A DNA stretch of 64,000 bases from Nitrospirota bacterium (lineage in GTDB: Bacteria > Nitrospirota > UBA9217), in the NCBI GenBank assembly GCA_963790205.1, contig CAWBNQ010000001.1, forward strand, positions 800,001 through 864,000, in the 5' to 3' direction. The notes under the pieces were generated by a model. That model was not told the origin of the DNA and did no database searches. It worked only from the letters and a program-made list of their open reading frames with translations. Shown here piece after piece: positions 5,710 to 58,757 of this stretch. The translations under genes were made by a program, and so were the position numbers. The stretch's first letter is position 1, and every line of letters starts with the position of its first letter.

Positions 5710-5832
5710 GGCAAGTCTCCTTTTGGTGTATTTTGGTCCGGGATAGACCTAATATACCTTAAGTCAGACTTGCCTTTTTAATCATAAGGTCTGTGTGCTC
5801 TGCGGATCAACTTATACCGTAAGGAGCTCTTC

Positions 5833-7074: not shown

Positions 7075-7192
7075 TCAGATCCGCAGGGCGCATGACGTAT
7101 GGCGTTTCAGGTTTTATATCCTGCCTTTAGCTCCTTGCTCCATGCTCTTCTCTTCGATACCCTTCCTCTCGCTAATCTGATATAATTCAATC

Positions 7193-30799: not shown

Positions 30800-31158
<359 letters not shown>

Positions 31159-31159
<1 letters not shown>

Positions 31160-31249
31160 AATAAATTATGAATTCCGAAATCCGAAGCTCTAAATAATTT
31201 AGAATTTCGAAATTAGAAAAAATTAGAAATTAGGATTTGATATTAAATT
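31159..31249. repeat. AT-rich heptamer repeat between glnB and glnA
   Basis: AATTCCG AAATCCG ... AATTTCG AAATTAG AAATTAG AAATTAG. Confidence 0.55.
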
Positions 31250-31262
31250 GAGGAGGAACCAA

Positions 31263-32675
31263 ATGACACCGAAAGATGCACTGAAGCTGGCAAAAGAGAA
31301 CAAGGCAATGATGGTCGACTTCAAATTCATGGATTTCCCGGGGTTGTGGCAGCACTTTTCCGTCCCGGTGGACGAACTGACCGAGGGCATCTTCGAGGAA
31401 GGCCTCGGTTTCGACGGATCGAGCATCCGCGGCTGGCAGTCTATCCATACCTCGGACATGCTCGTCGTGCCCGATGCCGAAACGGCGGTGATGGACCCCT
31501 TCACCAAGTATCCGACCATGTCGCTGATCTGCAACATCGTAGACCCGATCACGAAGGAGCGTTACTCCCGCGATCCGCGCTACATCGCACAGAAGGCCGA
31601 AGCGTACCTCAAGTCCACCGGCATCGGTGACACCTGCTACATGGGTCCCGAGCCGGAATTCTTCATTTTCGACGACGTCCGCTTTGACCAGAATTCCCAC
31701 GAAGGCTACTACCACATCGACAGCAGCGAAGGCATATGGAACAGCGGCCGCGTGGAAAACCCGAACCTCGGTTACAAACCGCGCCACAAGGAAGGCTACT
31801 TCCCGGTGCCGCCCATCGACTCCCAGGAGGACATCCGCTCCGAGATGGTAGAAGAGATGCAGAAGGTCGGCATCTACGTGGAGCGCCAGCACCATGAAGT
31901 GGCGACCGCGGGCCAGGCCGAGATCGATATCCGGTTCAGCAACCTGGTCAAGTGCGCCGACCAGGTCATGTTCTTCAAGTACATCATCAAGAACGTGGCC
32001 AAGCGGAACGGGAAGACCGTGACCTTCATGCCCAAACCTCTTTTCGGAGATAACGGCTCGGGCATGCATACCCACCAGTCCATCTGGAAGGGCGGCAAGC
32101 CCCTGTTCTCCGGTGACCAGTATGCCGGCATGTCCCAGATGGCGCTCCACTACATCGGCGGCATCCTCAAACATGCGAAAGTGATCGCCGCCTTCACGAA
32201 CCCCACGATGAACTCCTACAAACGCCTGACCCCGGGCTTCGAAGCGCCGGTGAACCTGGCCTACTCGAGCCGGAACCGCTCGGCCTCGGTCCGTATCCCG
32301 ATGTACAGTGCGAACCCCAAGACCAAGAGGATCGAGGTACGCTTCCCCGACCCGTCCTGCAACCCCTACATGGCCTTCGCTGCCATGCTGATGGCGGGCC
32401 TCGACGGCATTGAGAACAAGATCGATCCGGGCCAGCCGCTCGACAAGGACATCTATGATATGGCTCCGGAAGAACTGGCGAACGTGCCTTCCATGCCGGG
32501 ATCGCTTGAAGAGGCGCTGGACAACCTCGAAGCGGACCACAGCTTCTTGATGAAGGGCGACGTGTTCACCAAGGACGCCATCGAAATGCATATCAACTAC
32601 AAGAGGACCAAGGAAGTGGACGCGCTCCGGCTCCGTCCCCATCCTTACGAGTTCTTCCTGTACTATGACATTTAA
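31263..32675 (+). CDS. glnA: Glutamine synthetase type I (beta; adenylylation motif)
   Basis: [42 protein letters not shown]. Confidence 0.98.
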
Positions 32676-32698
32676 CAGTTGATTGATGCACTGCACTC

Positions 32699-32738
32699 AA
32701 AACCGGAACTCTCTTAATGAAAGGGTTCCGGTTTTTTT
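32699..32738 (+). terminator. Intrinsic terminator after glnA
   Basis: AACCGGAACTCT/AGGGTTCCGGTT stem plus T7. Confidence 0.85.
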
Positions 32739-32810
32739 CGTCTGTAGCTTTTTCCCTCCGTCGCTTCACCTTGTTTGAACTTGTCGCCGGTCTCACGCTA
32801 TAATATCATT

Positions 32811-35800
32811 ATGAAACTGTCCGATCTTCTTGACACTCGGGTCATCACCGTCAACCTGAAGGCACGGGACAAAAGAGGGGCTTTGGAGGAGATGGTCGGC
32901 ATTCTCCGGAGGTCCGGGCGGCTCAGGGACTCCGGTGAAATAGTCAAAGCCCTTCTGGACAGGGAGGCCACCGAGAGCACCGCCGTGGGACGGGGGGTGG
33001 CGTTTCCCCACGCGAGGGTGGACGGCCTGAAGGACCCCGTTGCCCTCCTCGCTGTGTCAAAAAGGGGCGTTGATTTTTTTGCCAGGGATCATCATCCAGT
33101 CCACTTGTTCTTTCTTTTTTTGACCCCCACGGAAAAGACGGATGTTCATCTCCAGATTCTTTCCAAGTCATCCGCGATCTTTTCCGACGCCCCTCTTTAT
33201 CACACCCTCAAGCGGGTCAGGACCCCTCATTCCGCCCTCGGTCTCCTCCTCCATCATGAAAAGGGCGGGAAGGAGGTCTTCTTCCCGCTGCCTCTGGAGA
33301 ACATCTACGAGGAACTCGGCACGGATGCGTCCGGGCTGACGGAAGAGGAGGCATTGAAAAGGCTGGAACGCTACGGCCCCAATGTCCTGAAAGAGGTCAG
33401 GGGAAAGCCCCTCCTCTTACGGTTTATCGAGAACTTTACAAGTTTTTTCGCCCTCCTCCTCTGGACAGGAGGAATTCTGGCATTTTTCGCCCGACATGCC
33501 GGAGCTTGGCTGGGCCATCTTTGCCGTAATCATCATCAATGCGGTCTTCAGCTTCTGGCAGGAGTACAAGGCGGAACGGGCACTGGAGGCGCTCAAGAGG
33601 CTTCTACCCCGCATGGCCCGCGTCCTCCGGGCCGGGACGAAGAAGGAGGTGCCGGCAACGGACCTTGTCCCCGGGGACATTATTCTCCTGGAGGAAGGAG
33701 ACGCTGTCTCGGCGGATGCGCGGCTCATTGAAGCATCGGACATGCGGGTCGACAACTCTACACTTACCGGCGAGTCGAAGCCGATCCATAAAACAGCTGA
33801 GGCGGTCGCTGACGGCAGGGAGTTTCTCTGGACCGAGATCCCGAACCTCGTTTTTGCGGGCACAACGGTTTCATCCGGAAGCGGCAGGGGCGCGGTCATC
33901 GCAACGGGGATGCACACGGAGATCGGCAGGATCGCCTCCCTTACCCAGGAGCTGAAGGATGAAAAAAGTCCTCTTCAGCACGAGATAGAAAAGGTAACAA
34001 AAATCGTCACCATCCTCTCGGTGTCAATGGGCGTCCTCTTCTTCTTCATCGGGACCTCCCTCGGCAAGCTGAGCCTCGCCGCTGCATTCCTCTTCGCCAT
34101 AGGGATCATCGTCGCCAATGTGCCCGAGGGGCTCCTACCTACTGTTTCCCTGTCCCTGGCAATGGCAGTGCAGCGCATGGTCAAAAGGAACGTGCTGGTG
34201 AAAAAACTCTCGTCGGTAGAGACCCTGGGGTGCACGACGGTCATCTGCACGGACAAGACCGGCACGCTCACGACCAACGAGATGACAGTGACAAAGATAT
34301 GGGTCAACGGGAAAGTGATCGAGATAAGCGGTGCGCACTACGAGCCTGCTGGAAATTTTTATTACCAGGGGGTCTCGTTGTCGCGCGAGGAGATGAGGGA
34401 GAACGGCCTTTACCGGCTCTTTGACGCTTCGATCCTCTGCAACAGCTCTTCTTTGCTTCCTCCTCAAAAAGCCGGAGATAGGTGGTCAATTCTGGGAGAC
34501 CCAACCGAAGCTGCCCTCCTGGTCATGGCCGCAAAAGGGGGGATTGACATTGCTGCAAGGAGCCGCGCCTTCCCCCGGATCGGCCATCTTCCTTTCGAGT
34601 CCGTGAGGAAGCGGATGACCTGTATCAACCTTGTCGAGGGCAGGCCCGCGGCCCACGTCAAAGGAGCGCCTGCGGAGACCCTGGTGCTTTGCACGCACAT
34701 TCTTCTGAACAACAGAAGCGAACCGCTGACAGACGAGCTTCGCCGGAACATCCTGTTGGAAAACGATGCCCTTGCAAAGGACGGGCTGCGCGTGCTCGGG
34801 ATCGCAGAGAGGCCTCTTGAGTCCGATGGCGGATTCAGCGTCGAGAAGACCGAGAGGGACTTGATCTTCCTGGGACTCACCGGAATGATGGACCCGCCGC
34901 GGCCTGAGGTGCCCAAGGCCATGGAGCTTTGCCGCAGGGCGGGGATCAAAGCAATCATGATCACCGGAGACTACGGCCTCACTGCCCTCGCCATAGCGAA
35001 AAAGATCGGCCTTGCGCGGACGGAGAACCCGCGCGTTATGACAGGCCATGAGCTCTCCGAGATCGACGAGGAAGGCCTCAATCGGATTTTGAAGGAAGAG
35101 GTGATCTTCGCCCGGGTCTCGCCCGAGCACAAGATGAGGATCGTTTCAGCCCTGAAGCAATCGGGCGAGGTCGTCGCGGTGACCGGCGACGGGGTGAACG
35201 ACGCGCCTGCGCTTAAGAAGGCGGACATCGGCGTGGCCATGGGCATGCGGGGCTCCGACGTGGCCAAGGAAGCTGCGGCCATGATCCTCATTGATGACAA
35301 CTTCGCCTCCATCGTGTCGGCCATCGAAGAGGGCCGGGCCGTGTATTCCAATATCAAGAAGTTCGTGGCCTACATATTCGCGAGCAACATCCCCGAGGTC
35401 GTTCCCTTCATCGCCTTCGTCCTGTTCAAGATCCCTCTCCCGCTCACGGTGATGCAGATCCTGGCCGTGGACCTGGGCACGGACCTCGTGCCTGCCCTTG
35501 GCCTCGGAACAGAGCCGCCTGAGCCCGGCACCATGGACCAGCCCCCGAGACCGCGGGACAAAAGGCTCCTCGATCTGCCGCTTCTCCTTCGGGCCTACTG
35601 TTTTCTGGGGCCCATCGAGGCGGTTGCCAGTATGGCCGGGTTCTTCTTCATCTACCTCGAAAACGGGTGGAGGCCCGGGATAGAGATGGCGGATTCGGGA
35701 ACGCTATATCTTACTGCCACAACCATGTCCCTTGCCGGTATCGTGGCCTCTCAAATCGGCAATGTCTTTGCGTGCAGGACCGAGCGGGAATCGGTATTCA

Positions 35801-36009
35801 GTGCCGGGCTCTTTGCCAACAGGCTTGTCCTGTGGGGTATCGCAACAGAGCTCGCTATCATAACATGCCTGATTTATGCGCCTCCTTTGCAAAGGATCTT
35901 CGGGCTTGCCCCTCTCGCTATCAAGGAATTGGCCTTTCTTCTGATCTTCCCTCCTATCCTTCTGTTGATGGAGGAGGCAAGGAAGAGGATCGTAAGAAGA
36001 GCAGCGTGA
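32811..36009 (+). CDS. PTS EIIA domain fused to a P2-type (Na,K/H,K-like) cation ATPase; frameshift near 33491
   Basis: EIIA: REATESTAVGRGVAFPHAR; ATPase N-domain GLTEEEA..RL..YGPN in the same frame; removing one C gives AFFADMPEL; TGES, ANVPEGL, DKTGTLT, TGD, GDGVND, SNIPE, DLGTD. Confidence 0.85.
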
Positions 36010-36132: not shown

Positions 36133-36213
36133 ATGGACATCCTGTTTGTCGGAATTACGATTGTGCTCTTCGTTGCAAGCTGGTTTTTCGTGAAACTTGT
36201 TGAACGAGTGTAA
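36133..36213 (+). CDS. 26-aa single-TM micro-peptide upstream of kdpF
   Basis: MDILFVGITIVLFVASWFFVKLVERV; strong GGAGGT RBS; absent from the ORF track. Confidence 0.7.
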   Translation: MDILFVGITIVLFVASWFFVKLVERV

Positions 36214-36235: not shown

Positions 36236-36328
36236 ATGGAAATCTTCTACTGGATAGGCGGCATTCTCGCCGCAGCGTTGTTGGTCTATCTCTTGATAGC
36301 ACTTCTTAAACCGGAGGCATTGTCATGA
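36236..36328 (+). CDS. kdpF: K+-transporting ATPase subunit F
   Basis: MEIFYWIGGILAAALLVYLLIALLKPEALS (YL..ALLKPE motif); ATGA overlap with kdpA. Confidence 0.88.
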   Translation: MEIFYWIGGILAAALLVYLLIALLKPEALS

Positions 36329-38127
36329 CCGGCAACGATCTTGTGCAAATAATTTTATATTTTGGCGTTTTGCTGCTCCTCGCAAAACCGCTCGGTGTCT
36401 ACATGGCGCGGGTCTACGAAGGACAGCCTTCGGGCCTGGACCGAATGCTCGGCCCTTTTGAACGCCTTTTCTACCGGCTTTGCGGCATTAAGCCGGAGGA
36501 GGAAATGAGCTGGAAGAAGTACGCCGGTGCAGTGCTTCTCTTCAGCGCAGCGGGATTTTCCTTCCTCTATCTTCTGCAACGGCTTCAGGGAATGCTGCCG
36601 CTCAATCCGCAAAAGTTCGCAGGGGTCCGGCCTGACCTTGCCTTCAACACGGCAGTGAGCTTCGTTACGAACACGAACTGGCAGAACTACGGCGGTGAAA
36701 CAACGATGAGCTACCTCACGCAAATGGCAGGGCTTGCGGTCCAGAATTTCGTGTCAGCGGCAGCCGGCATGGCAGTGCTCGTTGCCATGATCCGCGGGTT
36801 CAAGAGACACTCGGCTGACACCATTGGTAATTTCTGGGCCGATCTCACCCGTTCAACGCTGTATATCCTGATCCCGCTTTCACTGATCTATTCACTGCTG
36901 CTCGTTTCGCAAGGTGTAGTCCAAACGTTCAGCGAGTACAAGACCGTGCAGCTCATTCACGGCATCACCTACGATAATCCGAAGCTCGATGCCCAGGGCT
37001 ATTCGATCAAGGATGAAAAGGGGAATCCGGTGACTGAGAAGGCGGAGATGAAAGAGCAGGTCATCCCGCTCGGCCCTGCTGCTTCTCAGATCGCGATTAA
37101 ACAGCTTGGGACGAACGGCGGCGGCTTCTTCAATGTCAATTCAGCCCATCCTTTTGAGAACCCGACCGCGCTCTCCGATTTCCTGGAGGTCCTGGCGATC
37201 CTCCTGATACCTGCTGCGCTCTGTATCACCTTCGGCAAGATGGTCGGAGACATGCGCCAGGGGTGGGCCCTTCTTGCGGCGATGATTATTGTGCTTGTCA
37301 CGCTGACGACCCTGTGTGTCTGGAGTGAACAGCACGGCAATCCGCGTTTCGCATCCATCGGGGTTGATCAACAAGCAAGCGACATGCAGCCGGGCGGCAA
37401 CATGGAGGGAAAGGAAGCGCGCTTCGGGATCGTGAACTCCGCGATCTGGGCCACCGCTACCACGGCGGCTTCGAACGGTTCCATCAATTCGATGCACGAT
37501 TCCTTCACGCCAATGGGCGGTCTCTATCCCATGGTGCTCATCCAGCTTGGCGAAGTCATCTTCGGCGGAGTCGGATCGGGACTTTACGGCATGCTGGTCC
37601 TGGCCATTATTACGGTCTTCATAGCGGGCCTCATGGTAGGGCGCACGCCGGAGTATCTGGGCAAGAAGATCGAGATGTTCGAGATGAAGATGGCCTCGGT
37701 CGCGGTACTCGTTGTCAATGCCCTGGTCAAGATCGGCACGGCAGTCGGCGTTGCGACTACAGCGGGAGCAGCGGGAGTCGCGAACCCCGGCCCGCATGGA
37801 TTTTCAGAGATCCTCTACGCCTTCTCATCTGCAGCGAACAATAACGGCAGTGCCTTTGCGGGCCTATCCGCCAACACGATCTTCTATAACACTGCCCTCG
37901 GCATCTCCATGTTCCTCGGCCGGTTCTGGGTGATCATCCCGGTGCTTGCCATTGCGGGCTCGCTTGCGAAGAAGAAGCAGGTTCCTGCGGGCTTGGGAAC
38001 GCTGCCGACCCATACGCCCTTGTTCGTGGCGCTCCTGATCGGAGTCATTGTGATCGTAGGCGCTTTGACGTTCATGCCGGCCTGGGCGCTCGGGCCGATT
38101 GCTGAACATTTGATGGCCACACGATAG
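36325..38127 (+). CDS. kdpA: K+-transporting ATPase subunit A
   Basis: SFVTNTNWQ, LGTNGGG, SNGS, GVGSG, NNGSAF selectivity motifs. Confidence 0.97.
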   Translation: MTGNDLVQIILYFGVLLLLAKPLGVYMARVYEGQPSGLDRMLGPFERLFYRLCGIKPEEEMSWKKYAGAVLLFSAAGFSFLYLLQRLQGMLPLNPQKFAGVRPDLAFNTAVSFVTNTNWQNYGGETTMSYLTQMAGLAVQNFVSAAAGMAVLVAMIRGFKRHSADTIGNFWADLTRSTLYILIPLSLIYSLLLVSQGVVQTFSEYKTVQLIHGITYDNPKLDAQGYSIKDEKGNPVTEKAEMKEQVIPLGPAASQIAIKQLGTNGGGFFNVNSAHPFENPTALSDFLEVLAILLIPAALCITFGKMVGDMRQGWALLAAMIIVLVTLTTLCVWSEQHGNPRFASIGVDQQASDMQPGGNMEGKEARFGIVNSAIWATATTAASNGSINSMHDSFTPMGGLYPMVLIQLGEVIFGGVGSGLYGMLVLAIITVFIAGLMVGRTPEYLGKKIEMFEMKMASVAVLVVNALVKIGTAVGVATTAGAAGVANPGPHGFSEILYAFSSAANNNGSAFAGLSANTIFYNTALGISMFLGRFWVIIPVLAIAGSLAKKKQVPAGLGTLPTHTPLFVALLIGVIVIVGALTFMPAWALGPIAEHLMATR

Positions 38128-38146: not shown

Positions 38147-40228
38147 ATGACAATGAGCAGTAAATCGAAAAAGAGGTCGCTCTTTGAACCGATGATCGTA
38201 AAAAAAGCATTATTGGATTCGTTCAGAAAATTGAATCCAGTTTACCAGATCAAGAACCCTGTAATGTTTGTCGTGGAAATCGGCAGCATCTTGACGACAC
38301 TCCTGTTTTCTCACGCAGTGCTGACGGGAAAAGGCGAGGCGTCGCCTTCCTTCATACTGCAGATCTCCGTCTGGCTCTGGATAACGGTGCTCTTCGCCAA
38401 CTTTGCGGAATCCATGGCAGAAGGCCGCGGCAAGGCCCAAGCCGATTCGCTTCGCAAAACGCGGTGCGAGGTCATGGCCAAGCGGCTTGCGAAGCCGGAA
38501 CCTGATGCGGATGCCACCCAAGTGTCCTCTTCGCAGCTAAAAAAAGGCGATGTTGTCCTCGTGGAAGCCGGCGACATCATTCCCATGGATGGCGAAATCA
38601 TCGAGGGGGTAGCCTCGGTCAATGAAAGCGCCGTGACCGGCGAAAGCGCGCCCGTGATCCGGGAAAGCGGCGGGGACCGGAGCGCAGTCACCGGAGGGAC
38701 CACAGTCCTGTCCGACTGGCTCGTCATCCGCATCACGACAAGTCCGGGAGAGACGTTCCTTGACCGGATGATCAGCATGGTGGAAGGCGCGAAACGACAG
38801 AAGACTCCGAACGAGATCGCGCTCGACATTCTTCTTGCGGGCATGACGATCATCTTCCTGCTCGTGTGCGTGACGCTCCTTCCCTATTCTCTCTTCAGCA
38901 TCAAGGCCGCAGGTCAGGGCGCACCGATTACCATCACCGTGCTTGTTGCCCTTTTGGTATGCCTCATCCCGACCACGATCGGAGGGCTCCTCTCGGCCAT
39001 CGGCATTGCGGGCATGGACCGGATGATCCAGGCAAATGTGATCGCCATGTCGGGCAGGGCCGTAGAAGCAGCCGGAGACGTTGACGTTCTGTTGCTCGAT
39101 AAAACCGGCACCATCACTCTCGGAAACCGGCAGGCCACCGAGTTTATTCCCGCACCGGGAGTGCACGTAGGCGCACTTGCTGACGCGGCGCAGCTCGCCT
39201 CATTAGCAGATGAAACTCCCGAGGGAAGAAGCATCGTCGTTCTTGCAAAGGAAAAATATGAGCTCAGGGCGAGAGACATCCACAGTATCGGAGCAACATT
39301 CGTGCCGTTCACTGCGCAGACGCGCATGAGCGGTGTTAATCTCGACAACCGTGAAATCCGAAAAGGCGCAGCAGACTCAGTTGAAAAGTACGCCCAAAAA
39401 ATGGGCGGGACCTTCCCTTCCGATGTTCGCTCGATCGTGGATGATATTGCCAAACAGGGCGCAACGCCGCTCGTGGTTGCCGAGGGACATAAAGTGCTCG
39501 GCGTCATCCGGTTAAACGATATCGTCAAGGGAGGGATCAAGGAACGGTTCGCGGAGATGCGCAAGATGGGGATCAAGACGATTATGATCACCGGCGACAA
39601 CCCGCTGACCGCCGCCGCGGTCGCGGCCGAGGCTGGCGTAGATGATTTCCTGGCCGAGGCAACGCCCGAGGCAAAGCTCAAGCTGATCCGCGAACACCAG
39701 AAAGGCGGAAGGCTCGTGGCCATGACCGGCGACGGCACGAACGACGCGCCCGCACTCGCACAGGCGGACGTTGCCGTGGCCATGCACACCGGCACCCAGG
39801 CGGCAAAGGAAGCAGGGAACCTCGTGGACCTCGATTCCAATCCCACGAAGCTCATTCAGATCGTCGAGATCGGAAAGCAGCTTCTGATGACCCGCGGCAC
39901 GCTCACGACCTTCAGCATCGCGAACGACGTGGCGAAATATTTCGCCATTCTGCCGGCCGCGTTCATTTCCATCTATCCGGCGCTGGGAGCGCTCAACATC
40001 ATGGGCCTGGCCACCCCGCAAAGCGCCGTGTTGTCCGCGGTGATCTTTAATGCTTTAATCATTATATTCCTGGTCCCCCTGGCGCTACGCGGAGTAAAAT
40101 ACCGGCCCCTTGGGGCTTCGATTGTTCTGCGCAACAACGCACTGATCTATGGAGTCGGCGGGTTGATCGTGCCGTTCATCGGCATCAAACTGGTCGACAT
40201 GTTGATAACTGCAATGCATATAGTTTGA
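38147..40228 (+). CDS. kdpB: K+-transporting ATPase subunit B
   Basis: NPVMFVV, TGES, CLIPTTI, DKTGT, GDGTND, NDVAKYF. Confidence 0.97.
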
Positions 40229-40269: not shown

Positions 40270-40842
40270 ATGTTCACCATGATTCGTAACGCATTCATGT
40301 CCTTGTTGCTGTTTACAATACTCACGGGGATTATCTACCCCCTGGCTGTGACCGGGATCGCTCAAGTAGTCTTTCCCCGTCAGGCGAACGGCAGCGTCAT
40401 CACGAAGAACGGCAAAGCCGTCGGATCGAAGCTGATCGGTCAGCAGTTCGACGACCGGAAATATTTCTGGGGAAGACCGTCGGCGACGACACCCTATCCT
40501 TATAACGGCGGGTCATCGACCGGCTCCAACCTCGGCCCGAACAACCCTGACCTCATGAAGGCTGTGCAGGCGCGTATAGATGCTCTGCGTGCCGCCGATC
40601 CGGGCAACGGGGCAAAAATCCCCGTTGACCTGGTCACGGCTTCCGGCAGCGGTCTCGATCCCCATATCAGTCCGGCTGCTGCCGAATATCAGATACGCCG
40701 AGTGGCAAAGGCCCGGGGACTCGAGGAGGCCAAGGTCCGCGACATCGTTGTCAATAACACAACAGGACGCTGGCTCGGCATGATCGGCGAGCCGGTGGTT
40801 AATGTCCTGGAACTGAACCTCGCGCTCGATGAAGAGAAGTAA
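40270..40842 (+). CDS. kdpC: K+-transporting ATPase subunit C
   Basis: [37 protein letters not shown]. Confidence 0.97.
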
Positions 40843-41418: not shown

Positions 41419-41504
41419 AAATATTCTGCACAGAATGCGCAAAATATGCGAAAATATAAATCATATAAGGTTTTCTCTGTTAATCTTTGGGAGCTTATAT
41501 ATAC

Positions 41505-44192
41505 ATGGAAGAACGCAGGCCTAGTCCCGATGAGCTTCTGGACAGAGTGCGCCGGGAAACCGAACGGAGTCGCGAGGGGCAGCTGAAGATATTCTTCGGC
41601 GCCGCTCCCGGTGTCGGGAAAACCTATGCCATGCTCGAGGCCGCACGCCAGAAGAAACGCGAGGGCCTGGAAATCGTGGTCGGTCTTGTCGAGACCCACG
41701 GCCGTATAGAGACCGAGGCGCTCCTCGAGGGACTGGAAGTCCTGCCCCGCAGGAACATCGAGTATCGCGGCTCCATCCTGAAGGAGTTCGATCTCGACAG
41801 CGCTCTTCTTCGCAAGCCTGCTATCATGCTTGTTGATGAACTTGCCCACACGAATGCCCCCGGCTCCCGCCACAAGAAACGCTGGCAGGACATCTATGAG
41901 CTGCTGGGGGCCGGCATCTCCGTCTACACCACCGTAAACGTGCAACACCTCGAAAGCCTGAACGATGTAGTCGCCCAGATCACGGGCATCAACGTCCGGG
42001 AAACCATCCCCGATTTTCTCCTCGACCGTGCCGATGAAATAGAGCTGATTGACCTGCCCCCCGACGACCTGCTTCAGCGTCTACGGGAAGGCAAGGTGTA
42101 CATGCCGGATCAGGCGGCCGCGGCCATCGAAAACTTCTTTCGCAAAGGCAACCTGATCGCGCTCCGCGAGCTCGCGCTCCGCCGCACCGCAGACCGCGTG
42201 GACGAGCAGATGCAGGTCTACCGGCAGGACAAGGGGATCAAGGACATCTGGCCTGCCGGGGAGCGGATACTGGTTTGCGTCGGGCATAATCCGCGCTCTA
42301 TTCGATTGATCCATGCTGCGCGGCGCCTGGCAGCGGGGCTTCGCACCGAATGGATCGCGGTGCACGTAGAGGCCCCCTCGCGGGTGCGCTCCTCGGAAAG
42401 CGACATCAAACAACTGGCCGACCATATGAGGCTGGCTGAAAGCCTGGGCGCCGAGACCGTTACGCTCTCCGGTCAGCGGATGAGCGAAGAAATTCTCACC
42501 TATGCCCGCAGCCGGAACGTGACGAGGATCATCATCGGCAAACCGACCCATGCGCGCTGGAAGGACAAGTTTTTCGGTTCACCCCTAGACGAGATCGTAC
42601 GCGGGAGCGGCGACATTGATGTCTATGTCATCAGCGGAGACGTTGCAGAACCCCATGTTCACCGTGATGCCGGCGCCCGGACCCGCACTTGGCGCAAAAG
42701 GGAATGGGCCTTAAGCGTGGCTGCCGTCACGGCGTGTACGGTCCTGGCACAGCTCCTGTCTTCCTACTTCGAGCGGCTGGACATCGCCATGATATACTTG
42801 CTCGGCGTCGTTTTCGTCGCGAGCCGCACGAGCAAGTGGCCGTCGCTCTTCGCCGCGCTCCTTTCCGTCGCGGCCTTCGACTATTTCTTCATCACTCCCT
42901 ACTATACCTTTGCCGTCAGCGATGTCCGGTACTTTATCACCTTCGCCGTCATGTTCATCGTTTCTTTCGTCATCAGCAGGCTCACGCTCCGGGTTCGCCA
43001 ACAGGCCGAGGCCGCGAGACTGCGCGAGCGCAGGACCGCGGCCCTGTACAACTTGAGCCGCGACCTGGTACGCGAGCGGGGGGCGATGCGGCTCTCCGAG
43101 ATCGCCATGAAACACATCGGCGAAGTATTCGACAGCCAGGTCGCGATCCTCCTTCCCGACGAGCAGAACCGCCTCGCCGCCGCAGCGGGCGGGACCTTTG
43201 CTTTCACCCCCGTGCAGCAGGAGCTGAGCGTTGCGCAATGGGTATACGAACACCGCCAGCCGGCCGGACTGGGCTCCGATACGCTGCCTGGCGCCAAGGC
43301 GCTTTATTTGCCGCTGATCGCCTCTGCCGGCGTCACCGGCGTCATCGGCATCCTTCCAAAATCCGCACCGGACGGGTTCGAGCCGGAACAGCTACACTAT
43401 CTGGAGGCATTTGCGAACCAGACGGCCATTGCCATTGAGCGCTCCTTTCTGGGCGAGGCGGCCCAGCGGGCCTTGCTGAAGGCGGAAACGGAAAGCCTGC
43501 GGAACACGCTTTTAAGCTCCATTTCCCACGACCTCCGGACACCGCTCTCGGCGATCACCGGTGCGGCGACGACGCTCCTGCAACGGGATGTTCTGCTCGA
43601 CACCGACAGTCGCCTCGACCTGGTCACGACCATCCAGGAAGAGGCGGAGCATCTGAACAGGATCATCAAGAACGTTCTCGACATGACACGGCTCGAATCA
43701 GGGGCCATTCAGGTGAACAAGGAATGGCAGTCCCTCGAGGAGATCGTAGGCGTGGTGCTGAACCGCCTCGGCGACCGCCTGAACGATCATCCGGTAACCG
43801 TGAAACTGCCCGGGAACCTGCCGCTCATTCCCTTTGACGGCCTGCTCATCGAACAGGTCCTGGTGAATCTCTTCGACAACGCAATCAAGTACACGCCCAA
43901 GGGTACGCCGCTGGAACTGTCGGCGTCGGAGTCGTTCTATACGGTGACCGTTGAGCTTGCCGACCGAGGTCCCGGCATTCCGCCGGGGGACGAAGAGCGC
44001 ATCTTCGAGAAATTCGTGCGCGGCCGGGGCGTCGCGGGCGGCGTGGGCCTGGGGCTCGCCATCTGCCGCACCATCATCAACGCCCACGGCGGCAGGATAT
44101 GGGCGGAGAACCGCGAGAACGGCGGGGCCGTATTCCGATTTACCCTGTCCTCGGCGGGGCTCCCGCCGGCGCAGAAGAAGGAAGAAGAGTGA
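41505..44192 (+). CDS. kdpD: Sensor histidine kinase KdpD
   Basis: GAAPGVGKT, VDELAH, Usp domain, 4 TM, GAF, SHDLRTPL, GLGLAIC. Confidence 0.97.
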   Translation: MEERRPSPDELLDRVRRETERSREGQLKIFFGAAPGVGKTYAMLEAARQKKREGLEIVVGLVETHGRIETEALLEGLEVLPRRNIEYRGSILKEFDLDSALLRKPAIMLVDELAHTNAPGSRHKKRWQDIYELLGAGISVYTTVNVQHLESLNDVVAQITGINVRETIPDFLLDRADEIELIDLPPDDLLQRLREGKVYMPDQAAAAIENFFRKGNLIALRELALRRTADRVDEQMQVYRQDKGIKDIWPAGERILVCVGHNPRSIRLIHAARRLAAGLRTEWIAVHVEAPSRVRSSESDIKQLADHMRLAESLGAETVTLSGQRMSEEILTYARSRNVTRIIIGKPTHARWKDKFFGSPLDEIVRGSGDIDVYVISGDVAEPHVHRDAGARTRTWRKREWALSVAAVTACTVLAQLLSSYFERLDIAMIYLLGVVFVASRTSKWPSLFAALLSVAAFDYFFITPYYTFAVSDVRYFITFAVMFIVSFVISRLTLRVRQQAEAARLRERRTAALYNLSRDLVRERGAMRLSEIAMKHIGEVFDSQVAILLPDEQNRLAAAAGGTFAFTPVQQELSVAQWVYEHRQPAGLGSDTLPGAKALYLPLIASAGVTGVIGILPKSAPDGFEPEQLHYLEAFANQTAIAIERSFLGEAAQRALLKAETESLRNTLLSSISHDLRTPLSAITGAATTLLQRDVLLDTDSRLDLVTTIQEEAEHLNRIIKNVLDMTRLESGAIQVNKEWQSLEEIVGVVLNRLGDRLNDHPVTVKLPGNLPLIPFDGLLIEQVLVNLFDNAIKYTPKGTPLELSASESFYTVTVELADRGPGIPPGDEERIFEKFVRGRGVAGGVGLGLAICRTIINAHGGRIWAENRENGGAVFRFTLSSAGLPPAQKKEEE

Positions 44193-44283: not shown

Positions 44284-44991
44284 ATGACTGAAGACAAAGA
44301 ACTTATATTGCTGATCGAGGACGAGCCGCAGATGCGGCGTTTCCTGCGTATCACGCTCCAGGGCCACGGTTATCGCCTGGTGGAGGCGGGGACTGCACAG
44401 GAGGGCTTGATGCAGGCGACGACGCGCAACCCCGACATCGTGCTCCTCGACCTCGGCCTGCCCGATCTGGACGGACTGGAAGTAACAAAAAGATTGCGCG
44501 AATGGACCCAGACGCCGATCATCGTCATTTCCGCGCGGGAACAGGAGCAGGACAAGGTGAAGGCCCTCGACGCGGGCGCTGACGACTACCTGACGAAGCC
44601 CTTCAGCGCCGGCGAGCTCATGGCACGGATCCGCGTCGCGCTCCGGCACGCGGCCCGCCAGACTGCCGGCAGGCAGGAGCCGGTTTTTATTCTCCAGAAC
44701 CTGCGCGTCGATCTGGCGCAGCGGCAGGCGTTTATCGATGATAAGGAAGTGCACCTTACGCCCATTGAGTATAAACTGCTGACGGTGCTGGTCCGGCATG
44801 CCGGCAGGGTCATCACCCACACCCAGCTTTTAAAGGAAGTCTGGGGGCCGGCTCACGTAAACGAGGTCCAGTATCTGCGTGTGTACATGACCCAGCTCAG
44901 ACATAAACTCGAAGCAGACCCAGCACGCCCCCGGTTTCTGATGAATGAGCCGGGGATCGGGTATCGGCTTAAATACGATCCGGAAGGATGA
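44284..44991 (+). CDS. kdpE: Response regulator KdpE (OmpR family)
   Basis: LDLGLPD, GADDYLTKPF, YLRVYM..LR.KLE.DP..P. Confidence 0.95.
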   Translation: MTEDKELILLIEDEPQMRRFLRITLQGHGYRLVEAGTAQEGLMQATTRNPDIVLLDLGLPDLDGLEVTKRLREWTQTPIIVISAREQEQDKVKALDAGADDYLTKPFSAGELMARIRVALRHAARQTAGRQEPVFILQNLRVDLAQRQAFIDDKEVHLTPIEYKLLTVLVRHAGRVITHTQLLKEVWGPAHVNEVQYLRVYMTQLRHKLEADPARPRFLMNEPGIGYRLKYDPEG

Positions 44992-53352: not shown

Positions 53353-53580
53353 ATGTCGCTAATTCCGCATTCAGGGCTGCAAATGACAAACCATAGCACA
53401 TGTCATCCCGAAGCCTTCTCCCGGGTCCTCATTGACCGTACCCTTTCCGATAGCGGCTGGGGGGATCTGCTGAGTTCCAAACAAGCCCCGTTCGAGTGTC
53501 ATGCGCTTAATGGACGCAATGTAGTGTCTATCTCGCCTAGAAACATCTACCAGGGCCATAAGGATAAGGGAATTAAATGA
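53353..53580 (+). pseudogene. Probable N-terminal remnant of a type I restriction subunit (hsdR)
   Basis: EAFSRVLIDRTLSDSGW resembles the E..R..ID..L...GW start of EcoAI-type HsdR; no helicase follows. Confidence 0.45.
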
Positions 53581-55688
53581 CACAAGAAGATATCATCCAA
53601 GCTACGCTCAAAGACAGTAGTTATCATCTTTCTCTTTTTTCCAAAGAGGAAATTGACGCGCTACGCACAAAAATTATCATCAAGGAATTAAAGGGCAAAA
53701 AAACGCCTTATGTCACGTGCATTGTTCGTGATAAGGATATTCAGCTTAAGCCGGAGGAAATCGTCCGCCAGCTTTATGCAGCAAGACTGATCGGCCAATA
53801 TGAGTATCCCAAAAAACGGCTTACCTTTGAGTATTCCGTTACGTTTGGCAGGGAGCAGAAAAGCGCCGACATTGTAGTTTTTGATAAGGACCGACCTGAT
53901 ACGCCGTACATCATCGTCGAGCTGAAAAAGCCGAAACTGAAAGAAGGCAAAGACCAGCTGCGTTCCTATTGCAATGCGACCGGCGCGCCGATGAGTGTAT
54001 GGACCAATGGCGAAAAGATTTCACATTACCACCGCAAAGACCCCAACTATTTTGAAGACATCACCGATATTCCAAAGGCAAGCCAAAGCCTTACGGACAT
54101 ACTCAGCGAGCGCTTTACCCTGAAAGATCTTATCATCAAAGATAAGCTCGCCAACGAACGGAAGTCCTTAAAGGACATCATTCTGGAAATGGAAGACGAA
54201 GTGCTGGCAAATGCCGGTGTGGACGTCTTTGAAGAGGTTTTTAAGCTCATTTTCACGAAGCTCTACGATGAATACCTGAGCCAGAAAGACAAAGGGATCC
54301 TTAATTATTTTTTGAAACAAGTTACTAAAACCGCAGTTGCTGAATCTGTCCCGAAATATGGCGAGAAACCCGGCTATCTTGATGGCTCCGATTATGATGC
54401 TTTAAAGGCTGCTGTAAGCGGAATCTCTGATGAAGGTTTCAGAGTGATGGAGTTCAGGAACTCCGGCCAGACAGATACGGAACTGAAAAACAAGATTCAG
54501 GGCTTGTTTGATAAAGCCAAGAATCAATGGACAGGTGTATTTCCCGAGGGTGCCGCTTTTGATTTGTCCGACAGCCACTTGGCGGTCTGCGTATCCAGCC
54601 TGCAGGACGTAAAACTCTTCAACTCCAATCTTCTGGTTGTAGACGAGGCTTTCGAATATCTGGTGAATAAATCCGCCAAAGGCGAGAAGGGGCAATACTT
54701 TACACCGCGCCATGTCATTGATATGTGCGTGCAGATGCTAAACCCCAAACGGGGCGAGTATATGATCGACACTGCTTCCGGCAGTTGCGGATTTCCAGTC
54801 CACACCATCTTCAAGCTCACAGGCCATCTTTTCACCAATGAGGAAATCCCGGAACAGGACAAAGAGTATGTGCTAAGAGTTTTCGGTATTGACTTTGACG
54901 AAAAGACCGTGCGTGTAGCACGCACCTTGAATCTCATCGCCGGGGATGGAGAAACCAATGTCCTGCATTTGAACACGTTGGATTATGACCGTTGGAGCGA
55001 CAAAACCGAAAAGGACCCAAAGTGGATTAACACCTATGGCAAGGGGTTTGAACGGCTAAAGAAGCTGGCCGTTGATAAAGGCAGCAATAAACAATTCTGC
55101 TTTGATCTGCTTATGGCCAATCCGCCCTTTGCCGGGGACATCAAAGAGAGCCGCATTCTGCATCAGTACGAACTCGGCTTTAATTCCAATCACAAAGCAC
55201 AATCCAAAGTCGGTCGAGATATTTTGTTTATCGAGCGGAATCTCGACTTTCTCAAGCCAGGCGGCCGCATGGCGATCGTTCTGCCGCAAGGCCGATATAA
55301 CAACACAACGGATAAGCCTATTCGTGACTTTATTGCCCAACATGGACGCATTCTGGCAGTTGTCGGTCTGCATGGCAATACCTTCAAACCGCACACCGGT
55401 ACGAAGACGAGTGTTCTGTTTGTACAGAAGTGGGACGATAAGCTTTGTCCGAAAGTCGATGACTATCCCATCTACTTTGCGGTCAGCGAAAAAGGCGGCA
55501 AGGACAATTCTGGAGATTACATTTTTGTCAAAAACGGCAATGGTCAGTATAAGCTCGATAAAAACGGCCACCTTATCGTTGACCATGATCTGCATAACCA
55601 TAATGGTGAACTGCCTGACGGTATTGCAGAGGCGTTCGTGAAATTCGCCAAGACGGAAAAGTTCTCGTTCTGGGCTGGAGATAAATAA
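53577..55688 (+). CDS. Restriction-modification fusion: HsdR_N-like PD-(D/E)xK nuclease plus N6-adenine methyltransferase
   Basis: PEEIVRQ, ADIVV...VELK; GQYFTPR, DTASGSCGF (motif I), NPPF (motif IV). Confidence 0.9.
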   Translation: MTQEDIIQATLKDSSYHLSLFSKEEIDALRTKIIIKELKGKKTPYVTCIVRDKDIQLKPEEIVRQLYAARLIGQYEYPKKRLTFEYSVTFGREQKSADIVVFDKDRPDTPYIIVELKKPKLKEGKDQLRSYCNATGAPMSVWTNGEKISHYHRKDPNYFEDITDIPKASQSLTDILSERFTLKDLIIKDKLANERKSLKDIILEMEDEVLANAGVDVFEEVFKLIFTKLYDEYLSQKDKGILNYFLKQVTKTAVAESVPKYGEKPGYLDGSDYDALKAAVSGISDEGFRVMEFRNSGQTDTELKNKIQGLFDKAKNQWTGVFPEGAAFDLSDSHLAVCVSSLQDVKLFNSNLLVVDEAFEYLVNKSAKGEKGQYFTPRHVIDMCVQMLNPKRGEYMIDTASGSCGFPVHTIFKLTGHLFTNEEIPEQDKEYVLRVFGIDFDEKTVRVARTLNLIAGDGETNVLHLNTLDYDRWSDKTEKDPKWINTYGKGFERLKKLAVDKGSNKQFCFDLLMANPPFAGDIKESRILHQYELGFNSNHKAQSKVGRDILFIERNLDFLKPGGRMAIVLPQGRYNNTTDKPIRDFIAQHGRILAVVGLHGNTFKPHTGTKTSVLFVQKWDDKLCPKVDDYPIYFAVSEKGGKDNSGDYIFVKNGNGQYKLDKNGHLIVDHDLHNHNGELPDGIAEAFVKFAKTEKFSFWAGDK

Positions 55689-57094
55689 TGCAAGTAACGG
55701 TTGCAAAATTCTCAGAGGCCGAGAGAAACGAGAGAATCGATGCACAATTTTTCAAGCCTGAGTATGTAGATAGCTACAATAAAGTAATTACTGGGCGATA
55801 TGCGCTATTAAAAGACATTGCCCACATCACGGATGGTAATCACCTCAAAATAGCGGAAGATTTTGATGCGGTAGAAGGTGTTCGGTACTTACGAGGTCAG
55901 GATTTAGGTGCTGACATGATGCTTAACGACAGAAATGTCGTTTATATTCCAGAAACAGTCTATGACACGCTTAAACGATCCCATATTTACAAAAACGATG
56001 TGCTGATAACGATAGTCGGAGCGAATACGGGACTGGTGGGACTCGTTTACTCTCCCCCTCCGAAACTTGTCGCTAATTGCAAGCTGGGGATAGCGAGAGC
56101 TTTTAAAGGGGAAATCTTATCAGGATATTTATACGCTTTTTTGACCAGCAGATATGGACAACATCAAATATTGCGTTCCATCCGTGGTGGAGGCCAGACG
56201 GGGCTTATATTGCCGGATATGAGGCGGCTGGTTATCACCCGCCGATCAGACGCGTTTGAAAACGCAGTAAACGATATTGTCTCGACCGGCCACAAAAAAA
56301 CTCTCGACTCAAAAGAAGCTTTTTTAAAAGCACGGGGCTTTCTTTTGTCAGCGTTAAGCCTTTTGAATTGGCAGCCGAAACACACGCTTGCCTTCGTTAA
56401 AAATTTTTCCGATACCAGCACCGCCGACCGCATTGATGCTGAATATTTTCAACCCAAATATGATGAAATCGTCAAAGCCATAAAAAGCTATCCGGGCGGC
56501 TGGGATGTGCTCGCTAATTTGGTTAAGTTGAAGGACAATAATTTTACCCCAGCAGGTGAAATTGAATATAAATATGTCGAGCTATCCAATATTTCCGGCA
56601 ATGGCGAAATTACGGATTGCATGCTTGAAAAAGGGAAGGACTTGCCGAGCAGGGCAAGAAGAAGAGTGTCGACTGGAGATGTAATTGTTTCCTCAATTGA
56701 GGGGTCGCTATCAAGTACTGCTCTGATAGAGAAGGAATATGATCAAGCCCTTTGTTCAACGGGATTTTATGTTGTCAACTCCAAGTTTTTCAATTCTGAA
56801 ACCTTGTTGGTCCTCTTGAAAAGCATGGTTGGTCAATTGCAGTTGAAGAAGGGATGCAGCGGTACGATATTGACCGCCATCAACAAAGAAGAACTCACCA
56901 AGATTGTTTTGCCTAAAGTCAATGAAACCATTCAGGCTCAAATCAAACAAAAAATCACCGAGTCTTTCGACTTGCGCAGACAGTCCAAGTATCTGCTGGA
57001 ATGTGCCAAGCGGGGAGTGGAGCTTGCCATAGAGCAGGATGAAGACACGGCAATCAAGTGGCTGCAAGAGCAAACGCATGCGAGGGTACCGTAA
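55688..57094 (+). CDS. Restriction-modification specificity subunit (HsdS-like, two TRDs)
   Basis: Duplicated RIDA(Q/E)(F/Y)F.P.Y; NDVLIT and GDVIVS TRD motifs; coupled to the MTase stop. Confidence 0.85.
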   Translation: MQVTVAKFSEAERNERIDAQFFKPEYVDSYNKVITGRYALLKDIAHITDGNHLKIAEDFDAVEGVRYLRGQDLGADMMLNDRNVVYIPETVYDTLKRSHIYKNDVLITIVGANTGLVGLVYSPPPKLVANCKLGIARAFKGEILSGYLYAFLTSRYGQHQILRSIRGGGQTGLILPDMRRLVITRRSDAFENAVNDIVSTGHKKTLDSKEAFLKARGFLLSALSLLNWQPKHTLAFVKNFSDTSTADRIDAEYFQPKYDEIVKAIKSYPGGWDVLANLVKLKDNNFTPAGEIEYKYVELSNISGNGEITDCMLEKGKDLPSRARRRVSTGDVIVSSIEGSLSSTALIEKEYDQALCSTGFYVVNSKFFNSETLLVLLKSMVGQLQLKKGCSGTILTAINKEELTKIVLPKVNETIQAQIKQKITESFDLRRQSKYLLECAKRGVELAIEQDEDTAIKWLQEQTHARVP

Positions 57095-57105
57095 GCGGGT
57101 CTCAC

Positions 57106-58002
57106 ATGACAGAATATTATAAGATCATTAACCTGCGTTTTGATAGCCCGGAAGTCATTGAGCAGCTCGGAAGTAAACCGAAGTTCTGGTTCCGTATGTC
57201 TGATGATGAACAGCCGTGGCTTTTCAAATATACCCGTGAAAATACGGGCGAGGATTGGTCGGAGAAGATCGCCTCCGAGTTGGCCCATCTTTTGGAAATC
57301 CCAGCGGCTCAGGTCGAGTTGGCTATGTTCATGGGCAAGCGCGGAAGCGCTTCCCGCTCATTTGTGCTTACGACACAGGGCTTTGACTTGATCCATGGAA
57401 GCGAAGTACTTTCGGGCCGCGTGCTTGATTACGAAAAATCGAAGCAATGGCACCAGAGCCAACATTGCATCAAGAACATTATTACGGCAGTGGAATTAAC
57501 ATTCACACCGAGACAACGAATTCAGCAACTGCGAACACTCGCCGGTTTCATTGTTTTGGATGCCATAATCTGCAATACCGATCGGCACCACGATAACTGG
57601 GGTTTGCTGCACGGCCCATTTGGACGTGGAAAGGCAAGGCATCAGGTTGCCCCATCGTTTGACCACGCCTCTTCTTTGGGACGAGAACTCGGGGATGAAC
57701 GTCGTAAGGCAATGCTTGTCTCCAACGGGATTGAAAAGTATGTAATGAAAGGACGTGGCGGTATCTTTTGGGAAGATAGTGATGAGAAGGGCGAAAACCC
57801 GCTATTGTTGGCTATGAAAGCGGCAAAGGCTTATCCGACGTACTTTGCTCCCTGGCTGCAAAAGGTGAATAGGCTTGATTCCGTAGATATGGCTGGAATT
57901 ATCGAGCGCATTCCGGTACAATATATAAGTAGCGAAGCAAAAGAGTTTTGTCTCGGTCTCATGACCTATACTATTGCAAAACTAAAAGAGGCAACCCTAT
58001 GA
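57106..58002 (+). CDS. HipA/CtkA-like Ser/Thr kinase
   Basis: GSKPKFW, LFK, GEDWSE, NTDRHHDNW, APSFDHASSLG. Confidence 0.85.
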   Translation: MTEYYKIINLRFDSPEVIEQLGSKPKFWFRMSDDEQPWLFKYTRENTGEDWSEKIASELAHLLEIPAAQVELAMFMGKRGSASRSFVLTTQGFDLIHGSEVLSGRVLDYEKSKQWHQSQHCIKNIITAVELTFTPRQRIQQLRTLAGFIVLDAIICNTDRHHDNWGLLHGPFGRGKARHQVAPSFDHASSLGRELGDERRKAMLVSNGIEKYVMKGRGGIFWEDSDEKGENPLLLAMKAAKAYPTYFAPWLQKVNRLDSVDMAGIIERIPVQYISSEAKEFCLGLMTYTIAKLKEATL

Positions 58003-58757
58003 AAACACTTTTCCTTGCATGGCAGGATAAGACGTCAACCCGTGCATGGTATCCCATCGGGCGGCTCGATGCGGATGTCAAAAAAAATCACTTTCAATTC
58101 CGTTATACGCAGGGCGCGGAAATGGCCCATAAGAAAGCAGGGTTGGAGCCACTCGATGCCTTTCCCGATTTTCATAAGATTTATGAATCTGCTGATCTCT
58201 TTCCGCTGTTCCGCAATCGTATTTTAGGCGAAGGCCGGGAGGATTTTCAGGAGTACTTAAAGCAACTTGACCTGAGTCCGGGACATGCCGATCCGTTGGA
58301 AATTTTGGCGCTAACCGGCGGGGAACGACAGACCGACAATCTGGAAGTGTTTCCAAAAATCGAACGCAGCAAAAGCGGTGGGTTCAATTGCCGTTTTTTC
58401 CTGCATGGCTGGCGTCATGTCAATGAGCCGGCGCAAAAAAAGCTGATTGAACTAAAAGGGGGTGAACATCTGCGGGTGGCTGTTGAGTTGAACAATCCGG
58501 CAACCGTTCTCGCGTTACAACTGCAAACCCCCGACGATTATCATATGATCGGGTGGGCGCCGCGTTATTTGGTAAAGGACTTGTTTCAGGCAATTTGCGA
58601 AGCGCCTAACGATCTTACCGCTACTGTTGTGAAGGTTAATCTTTCGCCTGCTCCCGCGAAGCAGCGGGTGCTCATTGAGATCAAGGGGCGTTGGTTGGAA
58701 GATTATGAACCAATGTCAACTCAGGAATTTCAGCCCTTGATGGCAGTTGCTGCATAA
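57999..58757 (+). CDS. HIRAN-domain protein with HipS-like N-terminal domain
   Basis: LAWQD...PIGRL...FQFRY...LFPLF.NRI; C-terminal FFLHG.RH...E.NNP...A...IGWAPRY; ATGA-coupled to the kinase. Confidence 0.75.
   Translation: MKTLFLAWQDKTSTRAWYPIGRLDADVKKNHFQFRYTQGAEMAHKKAGLEPLDAFPDFHKIYESADLFPLFRNRILGEGREDFQEYLKQLDLSPGHADPLEILALTGGERQTDNLEVFPKIERSKSGGFNCRFFLHGWRHVNEPAQKKLIELKGGEHLRVAVELNNPATVLALQLQTPDDYHMIGWAPRYLVKDLFQAICEAPNDLTATVVKVNLSPAPAKQRVLIEIKGRWLEDYEPMSTQEFQPLMAVAA

Follow-up and report, generated by a model that had tools for sequence, protein, structure and literature searches.

A PtsN-like EIIA domain fused to a Na,K-ATPase-like P2 pump, with a probable assembly error in its gene, between glnA and kdp of a Nitrospirota bacterium

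In a 64,000-nucleotide stretch of a Nitrospirota genome (GTDB lineage UBA9217; GCA_963790205.1, contig CAWBNQ010000001.1, positions 800,001 to 864,000; hereafter the window), a forward-strand gene at 32811-36009 encodes an EIIA domain of the phosphotransferase system (PTS) followed by a P-type ATPase. It lies 3' of glnB-glnA and 5' of the kdpFABC and kdpDE genes, which confirms the location between glnA and kdp given in an initial annotation made from the sequence alone (Table 1). Read through a single frame break, with the CGAC at 33492 taken as one step and X placed at the break, the gene yields one protein of 1065 residues (P0003). Its domain order is EIIA (aa 6-146), a linker of about 12 residues with low confidence, Cation_ATPase_N, the actuator, phosphorylation and nucleotide-binding (A/P/N) domains and the transmembrane helices M1-M10.

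The deposited sequence holds two overlapping open reading frames (ORFs) on the + strand, 32775..33731 and 33496..36009, whose frames differ by +1. Pfam was run on each frame apart (32811-33485 and 33487-36009). The first frame, read from the ATG at 32811, contains PTS_EIIA_2 at aa 6-146 (92.8 bits, E 2.5e-26, cut-off 27) and also Cation_ATPase_N at aa 160-223 (68.6 bits, above its cut-off). Since both domains are in this frame, the joining of EIIA to the pump can be seen without any repair of the break, as the initial annotation had argued. The second frame gave E1-E2_ATPase (171.8 bits), Cation_ATPase_C (163.8), Cation_ATPase (67.1) and Hydrolase (65.1). Every motif string quoted in the initial annotation occurs in the read-through protein, with GVAFPHAR at aa 62-69, GIIVANVPEGLL at aa 431-442, SNIPE at aa 858-862 and DLGTD at aa 887-891. 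An AlphaFold2 model of a 90%-identical homologue has a mean predicted local distance difference test score (pLDDT) of 81.2 and a predicted template modelling score (pTM) of 0.69; the EIIA domain is confident, and residues 153-157 of the linker fall below a pLDDT of 50.

Table 1. The fused pump gene, its control region and its neighbours (window positions, except for entries on contig C3 of the same genome).
Feature	Position	Strand	Basis
glnB (P-II)	30815-31159	+	Pfam, 117 bits
glnA (Gln-synt_C)	31248-32675	+	Pfam, 463 bits
Intrinsic-terminator hairpin and U-run after glnA, before the pump gene	32691..32747	+	-22.7 kcal/mol, z -4.16
Sigma-70-like promoter TTGAAC-18-TATAAT	32775..32804	+	10/12 consensus matches
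Pump gene, 5' part (EIIA, linker, Cation_ATPase_N, M1)	32811..33491	+	Pfam, translation
PTS_EIIA_2 domain (aa 6-146), PtsN-like	32826..33248	+	Pfam, 92.8 bits; best PDB matches PtsN
His67 codon (in GVAFPHAR), predicted phospho-acceptor	33009..33011	+	Conservation; aligns with the AIPH histidine of PtsN structures
Site of the single extra base (cgac, after ccc run); frame moves +1	33492..33495	+	Homologue alignment, relatives' contigs
Pump gene, 3' part (M2, A/P/N domains, M3-M10, stop codon)	33496..36009	+	Pfam
Asp481 codon (in CTDKTGT), catalytic phospho-aspartate	34252..34254	+	Asp in 115/115
M5-M6 ion-site residues S858, N859, E862 (SNIPE), D887, D891 (DLGTD)	35383..35484	+	Alignment with Na,K-ATPase alpha-3
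M8-M9 residues Q981, N984, E1013	35752..35850	+	Alignment with Na,K-ATPase alpha-3; 115/115 each
Small hydrophobic ORF, 26 aa, own GGAGG, unexplained	36133-36213	+	ORF list
Putative kdpF, 30 aa	36236-36328	+	Size, hydrophobicity and overlap with kdpA start only
kdpA	36325-38127	+	Pfam
kdpB	38147-40228	+	Pfam
kdpC	40270-40842	+	Pfam
kdpD	41487-44192	+	Pfam
kdpE	44284-44991	+	Pfam
KimA-like K+ transporter, APC family, 686 aa	45181..47241	+	PDB 6S3K, 207.5 bits, E 3.4e-60; AA_permease_2, 56.8 bits
Split Lon protease gene (example)	C3:738352-740779
Split NAD kinase gene (example)	C3:775587-776436
Split GpsA gene (example)	C3:660161-661160

Homologues were searched in 5.8 billion protein clusters, where 7997 candidates were scored and the best 120 examined. 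PF00359 together with the full P-type domain set, the architecture that the initial annotation had proposed to look for, is found in 115 of these 120, mostly in proteins of 1064-1073 residues, with source labels from Nitrospirota, Deltaproteobacteria, Planctomycetes/Brocadiaceae, Nitrospinae and Thermodesulfobacteriota. The five without PF00359 are a 923-aa Jettenia protein and four shorter ones, two of them labelled partial. One JGI homologue has a name that lists both halves. A search with EIIA alone among long proteins gave 70 matches at E <=1e-5, comprising 9 chimeras from Brocadia (655-678 aa) and 61 P-type ATPase proteins, 60 of the latter with PF00359; four of the 61 (597-771 aa) miss part of the pump.

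Related loci were collected by a contig scan with the full-length alignment, which returned mostly unfused pumps that were used as outgroup, and by a second scan with the EIIA-only alignment (genomes are given below as G numbers and loci as L numbers). A FastTree tree was built from 93 pump cores, 23 of them fused rows flagged by the EIIA motif and 70 others, mostly contig-search loci that are largely unfused. The fused proteins form a single clade with 97% Shimodaira-Hasegawa-like support, which also includes L009, with a divergent EIIA detected by tblastn, and the 923-aa Jettenia protein, which starts after the domain. Because the fused proteins group in one clade, we conclude that the fusion arose once and then spread across several phyla, partly by horizontal transfer. 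Within the phylum of the window, close copies are present in 8 of the 301 sampled genomes, own genome included: 6 of 63 other genomes of the same family, the single genome of a second family, and none in the remaining sampled families. Complete copies are open over 1079-1105 codons, with the exception of that in G252.

The G252 copy (L133, G252:C12:211000-223000, at about 4664-7848) is a fused pump with two frame changes, at residues 33-89 and 379-387. It may be an assembly error or a decaying copy.

The frame break of the window was investigated with homologues and with contigs of relatives. The junction AFFA-X-MPELGW is collinear and gap-free with 20 of 20 aligned homologues, the closest of which (90% identical) reads AFFARMPELGW. 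Contigs from four wastewater runs of one study were mapped to 33000-34000; three, about 90-92% alike, bridge the site, and all three have one base fewer, at 33493, 33494 or 33495. As every bridging contig lacks this base, the window is taken to contain one extra base, which adjoins a CCC run and lies 3' of a TTTTT run. Programmed +1 frameshifting was ruled out, since the relatives have no extra base at the site.

The frequency of such breaks was estimated with 20 stretches of 20 kb (400 kb) from the same-family genome G016, whose 243 ORFs of at least 200 aa were compared with the own genome of the window. A best match of at least 55% identity was considered orthologue-like, and 110 queries qualified. 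Nine of these 110 genes are split in the own genome into adjacent pieces in different frames, with 11 junctions, or 1 per 11.8 kb; at this rate about 0.27 breaks are expected in a gene of 3.2 kb. Clear Pfam families could be assigned to eight of the nine (Lon protease, NAD kinase, GpsA, uracil-DNA glycosylase, LarC-type nickel insertion, a nitrite/sulfite reductase domain, AMP-binding/acyltransferase and a ThiI-like protein). The reverse control, with ORFs of the own genome against the G016 stretches, gave 3 junctions, all of them mirror images of own-genome breaks. Because breaks in NAD kinase and GpsA are implausible in a 98%-complete genome of a free-living organism, we attribute them to frequent single-base indels of the assembly. 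The read-through protein differs at none of the 275 columns conserved at 97% or more in the other 115 sequences; for those sequences, the median number of such differences is 2 and the highest 13. The extra base is therefore very probably an assembly error and not biology, and unless reads say otherwise, a split gene in this genome is better taken for a likely assembly error than for a pseudogene. Several of the split-gene junctions fall at short homopolymers. Among 15 window ORFs checked for further splits, none was seen.

A genuine break would mean a freshly inactivated pump gene, with a product of only about 300 residues (EIIA and an M1 stub) or none. The extra base is, after all, in the deposited sequence; the gene is accessory, given its few close copies in the phylum; the G252 copy, from a second family member, has its own two frame changes; and K+ uptake could be covered by Kdp, the KimA-like transporter and Kup, which is also present in the own genome. 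We consider this improbable, since the broken NAD kinase, GpsA and Lon genes point to assembly errors, the highly conserved columns are unchanged and the promoter-like site of the pump gene is intact. In addition, G252 is also a contiguous assembly that may hold the same type of error.

For the EIIA domain, the closest solved structures are all PtsN (2A0J, 4GQX, 3URR, 1A6J). In NCBIfam it reaches 84 bits with the fructose-type IIA model, below the cut-off, and 67.1 bits with the PtsN equivalog TIGR01419, which does not reach its cut-off of 138.7. The two active-site histidines, His67 in GVAFPHAR (the predicted phospho-acceptor) and His113 in HLQIL, are each kept in 112 of the 115 fused homologues. 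The Ntr/Fru type and the intact phospho-histidine read in the initial annotation are both upheld. The own genome has a canonical rpoN-hpf-ptsN-hprK cluster with a free 157-aa PtsN, followed by a mannose-family EIID gene, HPr and enzyme I (EI). A PF02378-type EIIC was not found in this 98.3%-complete genome, while the control was positive in 7 of 14 genomes. Eight further genomes with the fusion, three from other phyla, were checked for HPr, and all have it. Across the phylum of the window HPr and PtsN are frequent anyway, and their co-occurrence with the fusion shows donor availability only.

The pump itself has the expected catalytic motifs LTGESKP, CTDKTGTLT and TGDGVNDAPALK (the TGES, DKTGT and GDGVNDAP signatures), and all 115 fused homologues keep E321 and D481. 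With 316.6 bits against a cut-off of 62.3, TIGR01494 identifies it as a P-type ATPase, and the flanking Cation_ATPase_N and Cation_ATPase_C correspond to a type II layout, with the helices seen in the AlphaFold2 model. In the PDB, the pump matches Na,K-ATPase alpha best (574 bits), followed by H,K-ATPase (about 535), Listeria LMCA1 (508), SPCA (496) and SERCA (470). In the alignment with Na,K-ATPase alpha-3, IVANVPEGLL of M4, SNIPE of M5 and DLGTD(L/M)VPA of M6 are identical. E439, E862, D887, D891, Q981, N984 and E1013 are invariant in the 115 fused proteins, and S858 and N859 are kept in 106 and 108 of them. Gln981 aligns with Gln920 of alpha-3, Glu1013 with the second Glu of the FEE motif, and Tyr854 matches the Na,K residue. 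The M8 position of alpha-3 Asp923, the aspartate of Na+ site III, is occupied by Asn984, and all 115 fused proteins have Asn there. About 35 residues of the M7-M8 outer loop of Na,K-ATPase have no counterpart in the alignment (query 956-967 against chain 871-906), which argues against a beta subunit; the beta-subunit family PF00287 was not found in the own genome, in a search in which the control genomes were silent too.

The motifs NVPEGLLPTV, SN[IV]PE and DLGTD also occur widely in pumps without the fusion, from Nitrospira, Nitrosomonas, cyanobacteria and some archaea, so the set is not special to this gene. Ca-pump-like outgroup loci have PEGLP and NLVTD in place of the Na,K-like motifs. 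The pocket can be read as sites I and II for monovalent cations together with a modified third site, a reading that relies on Na,K-ATPase mutagenesis. Since sites I and II are kept while the third Na+ site is altered by Asn984, the sequence suggests a monovalent cation as substrate and a two-site K+ importer exchanging Na+ or H+.

On balance, and with modest confidence, we favor the view that the gene joins a PtsN-type EIIA to a complete P2 pump interrupted by a likely assembly error, that His67 would serve as a switch driven by HPr and EI, and that the pump would likely move K+ against Na+ or H+. In its unphosphorylated form, PtsN binds KdpD, as seen in several species, and also the K+/H+ antiporter YcgO (PMC9239096 and PMC11808508), and because free PtsN acts on these two, a K+-moving pump would be the likeliest target of the fused domain. 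A more specific version remains tentative: a beta-less, two-site cousin of the Na,K pump that might import K+ (or NH4+) for Na+ or H+ and be switched by the phosphoenolpyruvate (PEP) phosphorelay through its PtsN-like domain. In the proposed mechanism, HPr~P would phosphorylate His67 of an EIIA that a short and flexible linker connects with the beginning of the actuator domain. Depending on whether it is phosphorylated, EIIA could then bind to the A/N/P headpiece or let go of it, and this would gate the E1/E2 cycle and hence turnover. Such gating of the headpiece is proposed by analogy with the terminal regulatory domains of P-type pumps and with LacS.

Alternatively, EIIA may not gate its own pump. 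It may instead work in trans like a PtsN anchored to the membrane, with KdpD as one example of a target, or serve as a phosphate sink or as a purely structural module. Free PtsN works through the binding of partners such as KdpD and YcgO (PMC9239096 and PMC11808508), kdpD is located 5.5 kb downstream of the pump gene, and the linker is flexible in the AlphaFold2 model. On the other hand, the fused proteins persist as one clade in several phyla, also at six of six distant loci with no kdp nearby; a separate free PtsN is retained too, and control in cis is most simply achieved by a domain that is covalently attached to the actuator. We therefore see the trans alternative as unlikely and prefer the cis switch.

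Several points weigh against our interpretation. The transported ion and its direction, phosphotransfer and EIIA docking are all features that we infer. The glnA and kdp context stressed in the initial annotation is shared, by descent, inside the lineage of the window, while all six of the distant fused loci (L113, L117, L116, L003, L058 and L009) have no adjacent kdp, kimA or glnA; the K+ link is thus suggestive, though not independent evidence. The presence of a mannose-family EIID next to HPr indicates that the PTS is not purely regulatory, although it belongs to another PTS family than the EIIA. EI is devoid of a GAF domain, so a PtsP-type glutamine/2-oxoglutarate input is not available. 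The control by nitrogen/carbon status proposed before, which had been a deduction only, is weakened accordingly: as EI has no GAF domain, nitrogen is a less likely input than the PEP/pyruvate ratio and metabolites sensed by HprK. Concerning the break, no public sequencing run containing this strain, RNA runs included, was found (best share of sampled words, 0.21), and with such a patchy fusion a true loss in this strain is conceivable.

The family assignment is also a point against it. The pump reaches 659.4 bits with TIGR01106 (IIC), below the cut-off of 946.1, and nearly the same, 649 bits, with TIGR01522 (PMR1-type Ca pump), below the cut-off of 798.3, so it belongs to neither curated family. 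The P2C ion-binding signature claimed in the initial annotation stands for M4, M5 and M6, which are identical to Na,K-ATPase, and fails at the IIC cut-off and at M8, with its Asn for Asp. Public labels of homologues name Ca2+- or Mg2+-transporting ATPases, for example 'Ca2+-transporting ATPase' and 'magnesium-transporting ATPase' at JGI. It could thus be a Ca2+ or Mg2+ ATPase whose export or import is tuned by EIIA, all the more as LMCA1 and SPCA come close behind in the PDB search. This seems rather doubtful to us, since M4 NVPEGLL, M5 SNIPE and M6 DLGTD correspond to Na,K-ATPase residue for residue, while the Ca-pump-like outgroup of the same search has PEGLP and NLVTD. Besides, every score is under its curated cut-off, so the Ca/Mg database names are automatic ones. 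We keep a monovalent cation as the preferred substrate.

In the control region, none of 200 shuffles folds as well as the terminator hairpin that follows glnA. The -10 box of the promoter-like site ends 6 nt upstream of the ATG at 32811, and no Shine-Dalgarno sequence is visible upstream of this ATG. Among 15 aligned same-lineage loci, [C/A]TATAAT is found 6-7 nt before the ATG in 13, as GCTATAAT in 12 and as GATATAAT in L096; L107 has TATACT at the -10 position and L106 shows no match. Considering the short distance between the -10 box and the ATG, the lack of a visible Shine-Dalgarno sequence and the glnA terminator upstream, the pump mRNA is predicted from the sequence to be leaderless and a transcription unit of its own. 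The bases before the -10 box (CTCACGC-TATAAT; window 32786-32804) are conserved too in L101, L104, L105, L107, L108 and L095, and may represent either an operator or part of an extended -10 box. No Rfam family scored over its gathering score in the window.

Upstream of the pump gene, the order glnB-glnA-pump recurs in the same-lineage G016, G018, L101, L102, L104, L105, L107, L108 and L109. Downstream, kdpABC is found in L101, L102, L107 and G021, kimA in L104, a HAMP-GAF kinase in G016, G005 and L109, and a truncated kdpD with kdpE and kimA in G018. Overall, K+ genes are downstream in the window and in 6 of 9 other same-lineage loci with downstream sequence, and the kdp-kimA block thus behaves as an insertion/deletion beside the pump gene. 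In the window, the KimA homologue is followed by a HAMP-GAF-PAS kinase, a sigma-54 response regulator and adk. TrkH was not found in the own genome.

The position just 3' of glnB-glnA, conserved in the same-lineage loci, could also suggest that the pump is an ATP-driven NH4+ importer. Na,K- and H,K-ATPases take NH4+ at their K+ sites, and fused or related pumps are found in anammox and nitrifier lineages (Brocadiaceae, Nitrospira, Nitrosomonas). We regard this as highly improbable, given that the own genome already carries three Amt genes, a terminator separates glnA from the pump gene, and the distant fused loci have no adjacent nitrogen genes, except for a nos cluster in one lineage. A pump moving K+ is still the preferred reading.

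Other observations were made around the fused loci. In L097 (G018), 3029-4516, only the C-terminal half of KdpD (matching aa 406-901) and kdpE are found, with no kdpABC; this kdpD is either a sensor kinase without the KdpD/Usp N-terminus or a deletion remnant. In the Candidatus Brocadia chimeras (P0127-P0135, 655-678 aa), a KimA-like protein, 66% identical to that of the window, contributes its first ~390 residues, and these are joined to the EIIA-pump N-terminus, with EIIA from about residue 17 and the first ~300 pump residues. Both partners are truncated. Since the chimera is found in many contigs, a real deletion junction in that species is probable. It shows kimA and the pump gene adjacent in a second phylum, possibly after joint transfer. 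Small proteins with a CBS pair are encoded near the fused pump in three distant lineages (L113 10867-12229, L117 5646-6068, L003 9105-9710), a proximity that could be chance. Further along the window, at 53577-58757, the GC content drops to 0.46-0.47 from about 0.57 elsewhere, and an N6-methylase/HSDR_N fusion and a HipA_C-domain protein are encoded; this segment is probably an acquired island of restriction-modification and toxin genes.

In the open PMC and bioRxiv literature we found no publication on an EIIA-P-type ATPase fusion, subscription journals being outside the scope of this search. To our knowledge, PtsN control of K+ homeostasis is known only in trans, via KdpD, YcgO and similar partners. 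New elements here are the assembly-error evidence, the single origin concluded for the fusion, the invariant Asn of M8, the predicted leaderless promoter and the glnBA/kdp/kimA context limited to one lineage. If our interpretation is right, this would be the first P-type ATPase gated by the PTS, with one protein linking energy or nutrient state to cation pumping, and the effect of EIIA phosphorylation on a transporter would be testable with a single purified protein. It would also offer a tractable bacterial model of P2C ion-site chemistry. The pump core comes from a large uncharacterised prokaryotic clade with the ion pocket of Na,K-ATPase and apparently no beta subunit, and knowing the ion and stoichiometry of this clade would inform the question of how the animal sodium pump arose.

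Among known systems, the alpha subunits of Na,K- and H,K-ATPase (P2C; 8D3U, 2ZXE, 7X23) are the closest solved matches and have the M4/M5/M6 motifs and the 10-helix P2 architecture in common with the fused pump, which differs from them in scoring below the IIC cut-off, in the Asn for Asp of M8, in having no long M7-M8 loop and in its EIIA N-terminus. Unfused prokaryotic P2 pumps of Nitrospira, Nitrosomonas, cyanobacteria and some archaea, with cores 45-56% identical and the same ion motifs, belong to the same large clade; they have no EIIA domain, whereas the fused proteins form one sub-clade within it. Terminal regulatory add-ons are known in the autoinhibitory regulatory (R) domains of P2B, P3A and P1B pumps (PMC10654040). 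The EIIA of the window is N-terminal and leads into the actuator domain. R domains respond to calmodulin, to kinases with 14-3-3 or to metals, and none of them is a PTS domain, while regulation of the pump encoded in the window is a prediction.

With free EIIA-Ntr (PtsN), the window protein has the domain family and the phospho-histidine in common. The phosphorylation state of PtsN sets its binding to a cation-transport component, and its targets in trans are KdpD in E. coli, R. leguminosarum, P. putida and S. fredii, and YcgO in E. coli (PMC9239096 and PMC11808508). The domain of the window, on the other hand, is covalently joined to a transporter, scores under the PtsN equivalog cut-off and coexists with a separate PtsN. 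A comparable case of EIIA on a non-PTS transporter is LacS of streptococci and lactobacilli, where HPr-dependent phosphorylation modulates transport, as reported in the review PMC10710835. In LacS, however, the EIIA is of the Glc-type superfamily and C-terminal, and the transporter is a sugar/H+ carrier instead of an ATP-driven ion pump.

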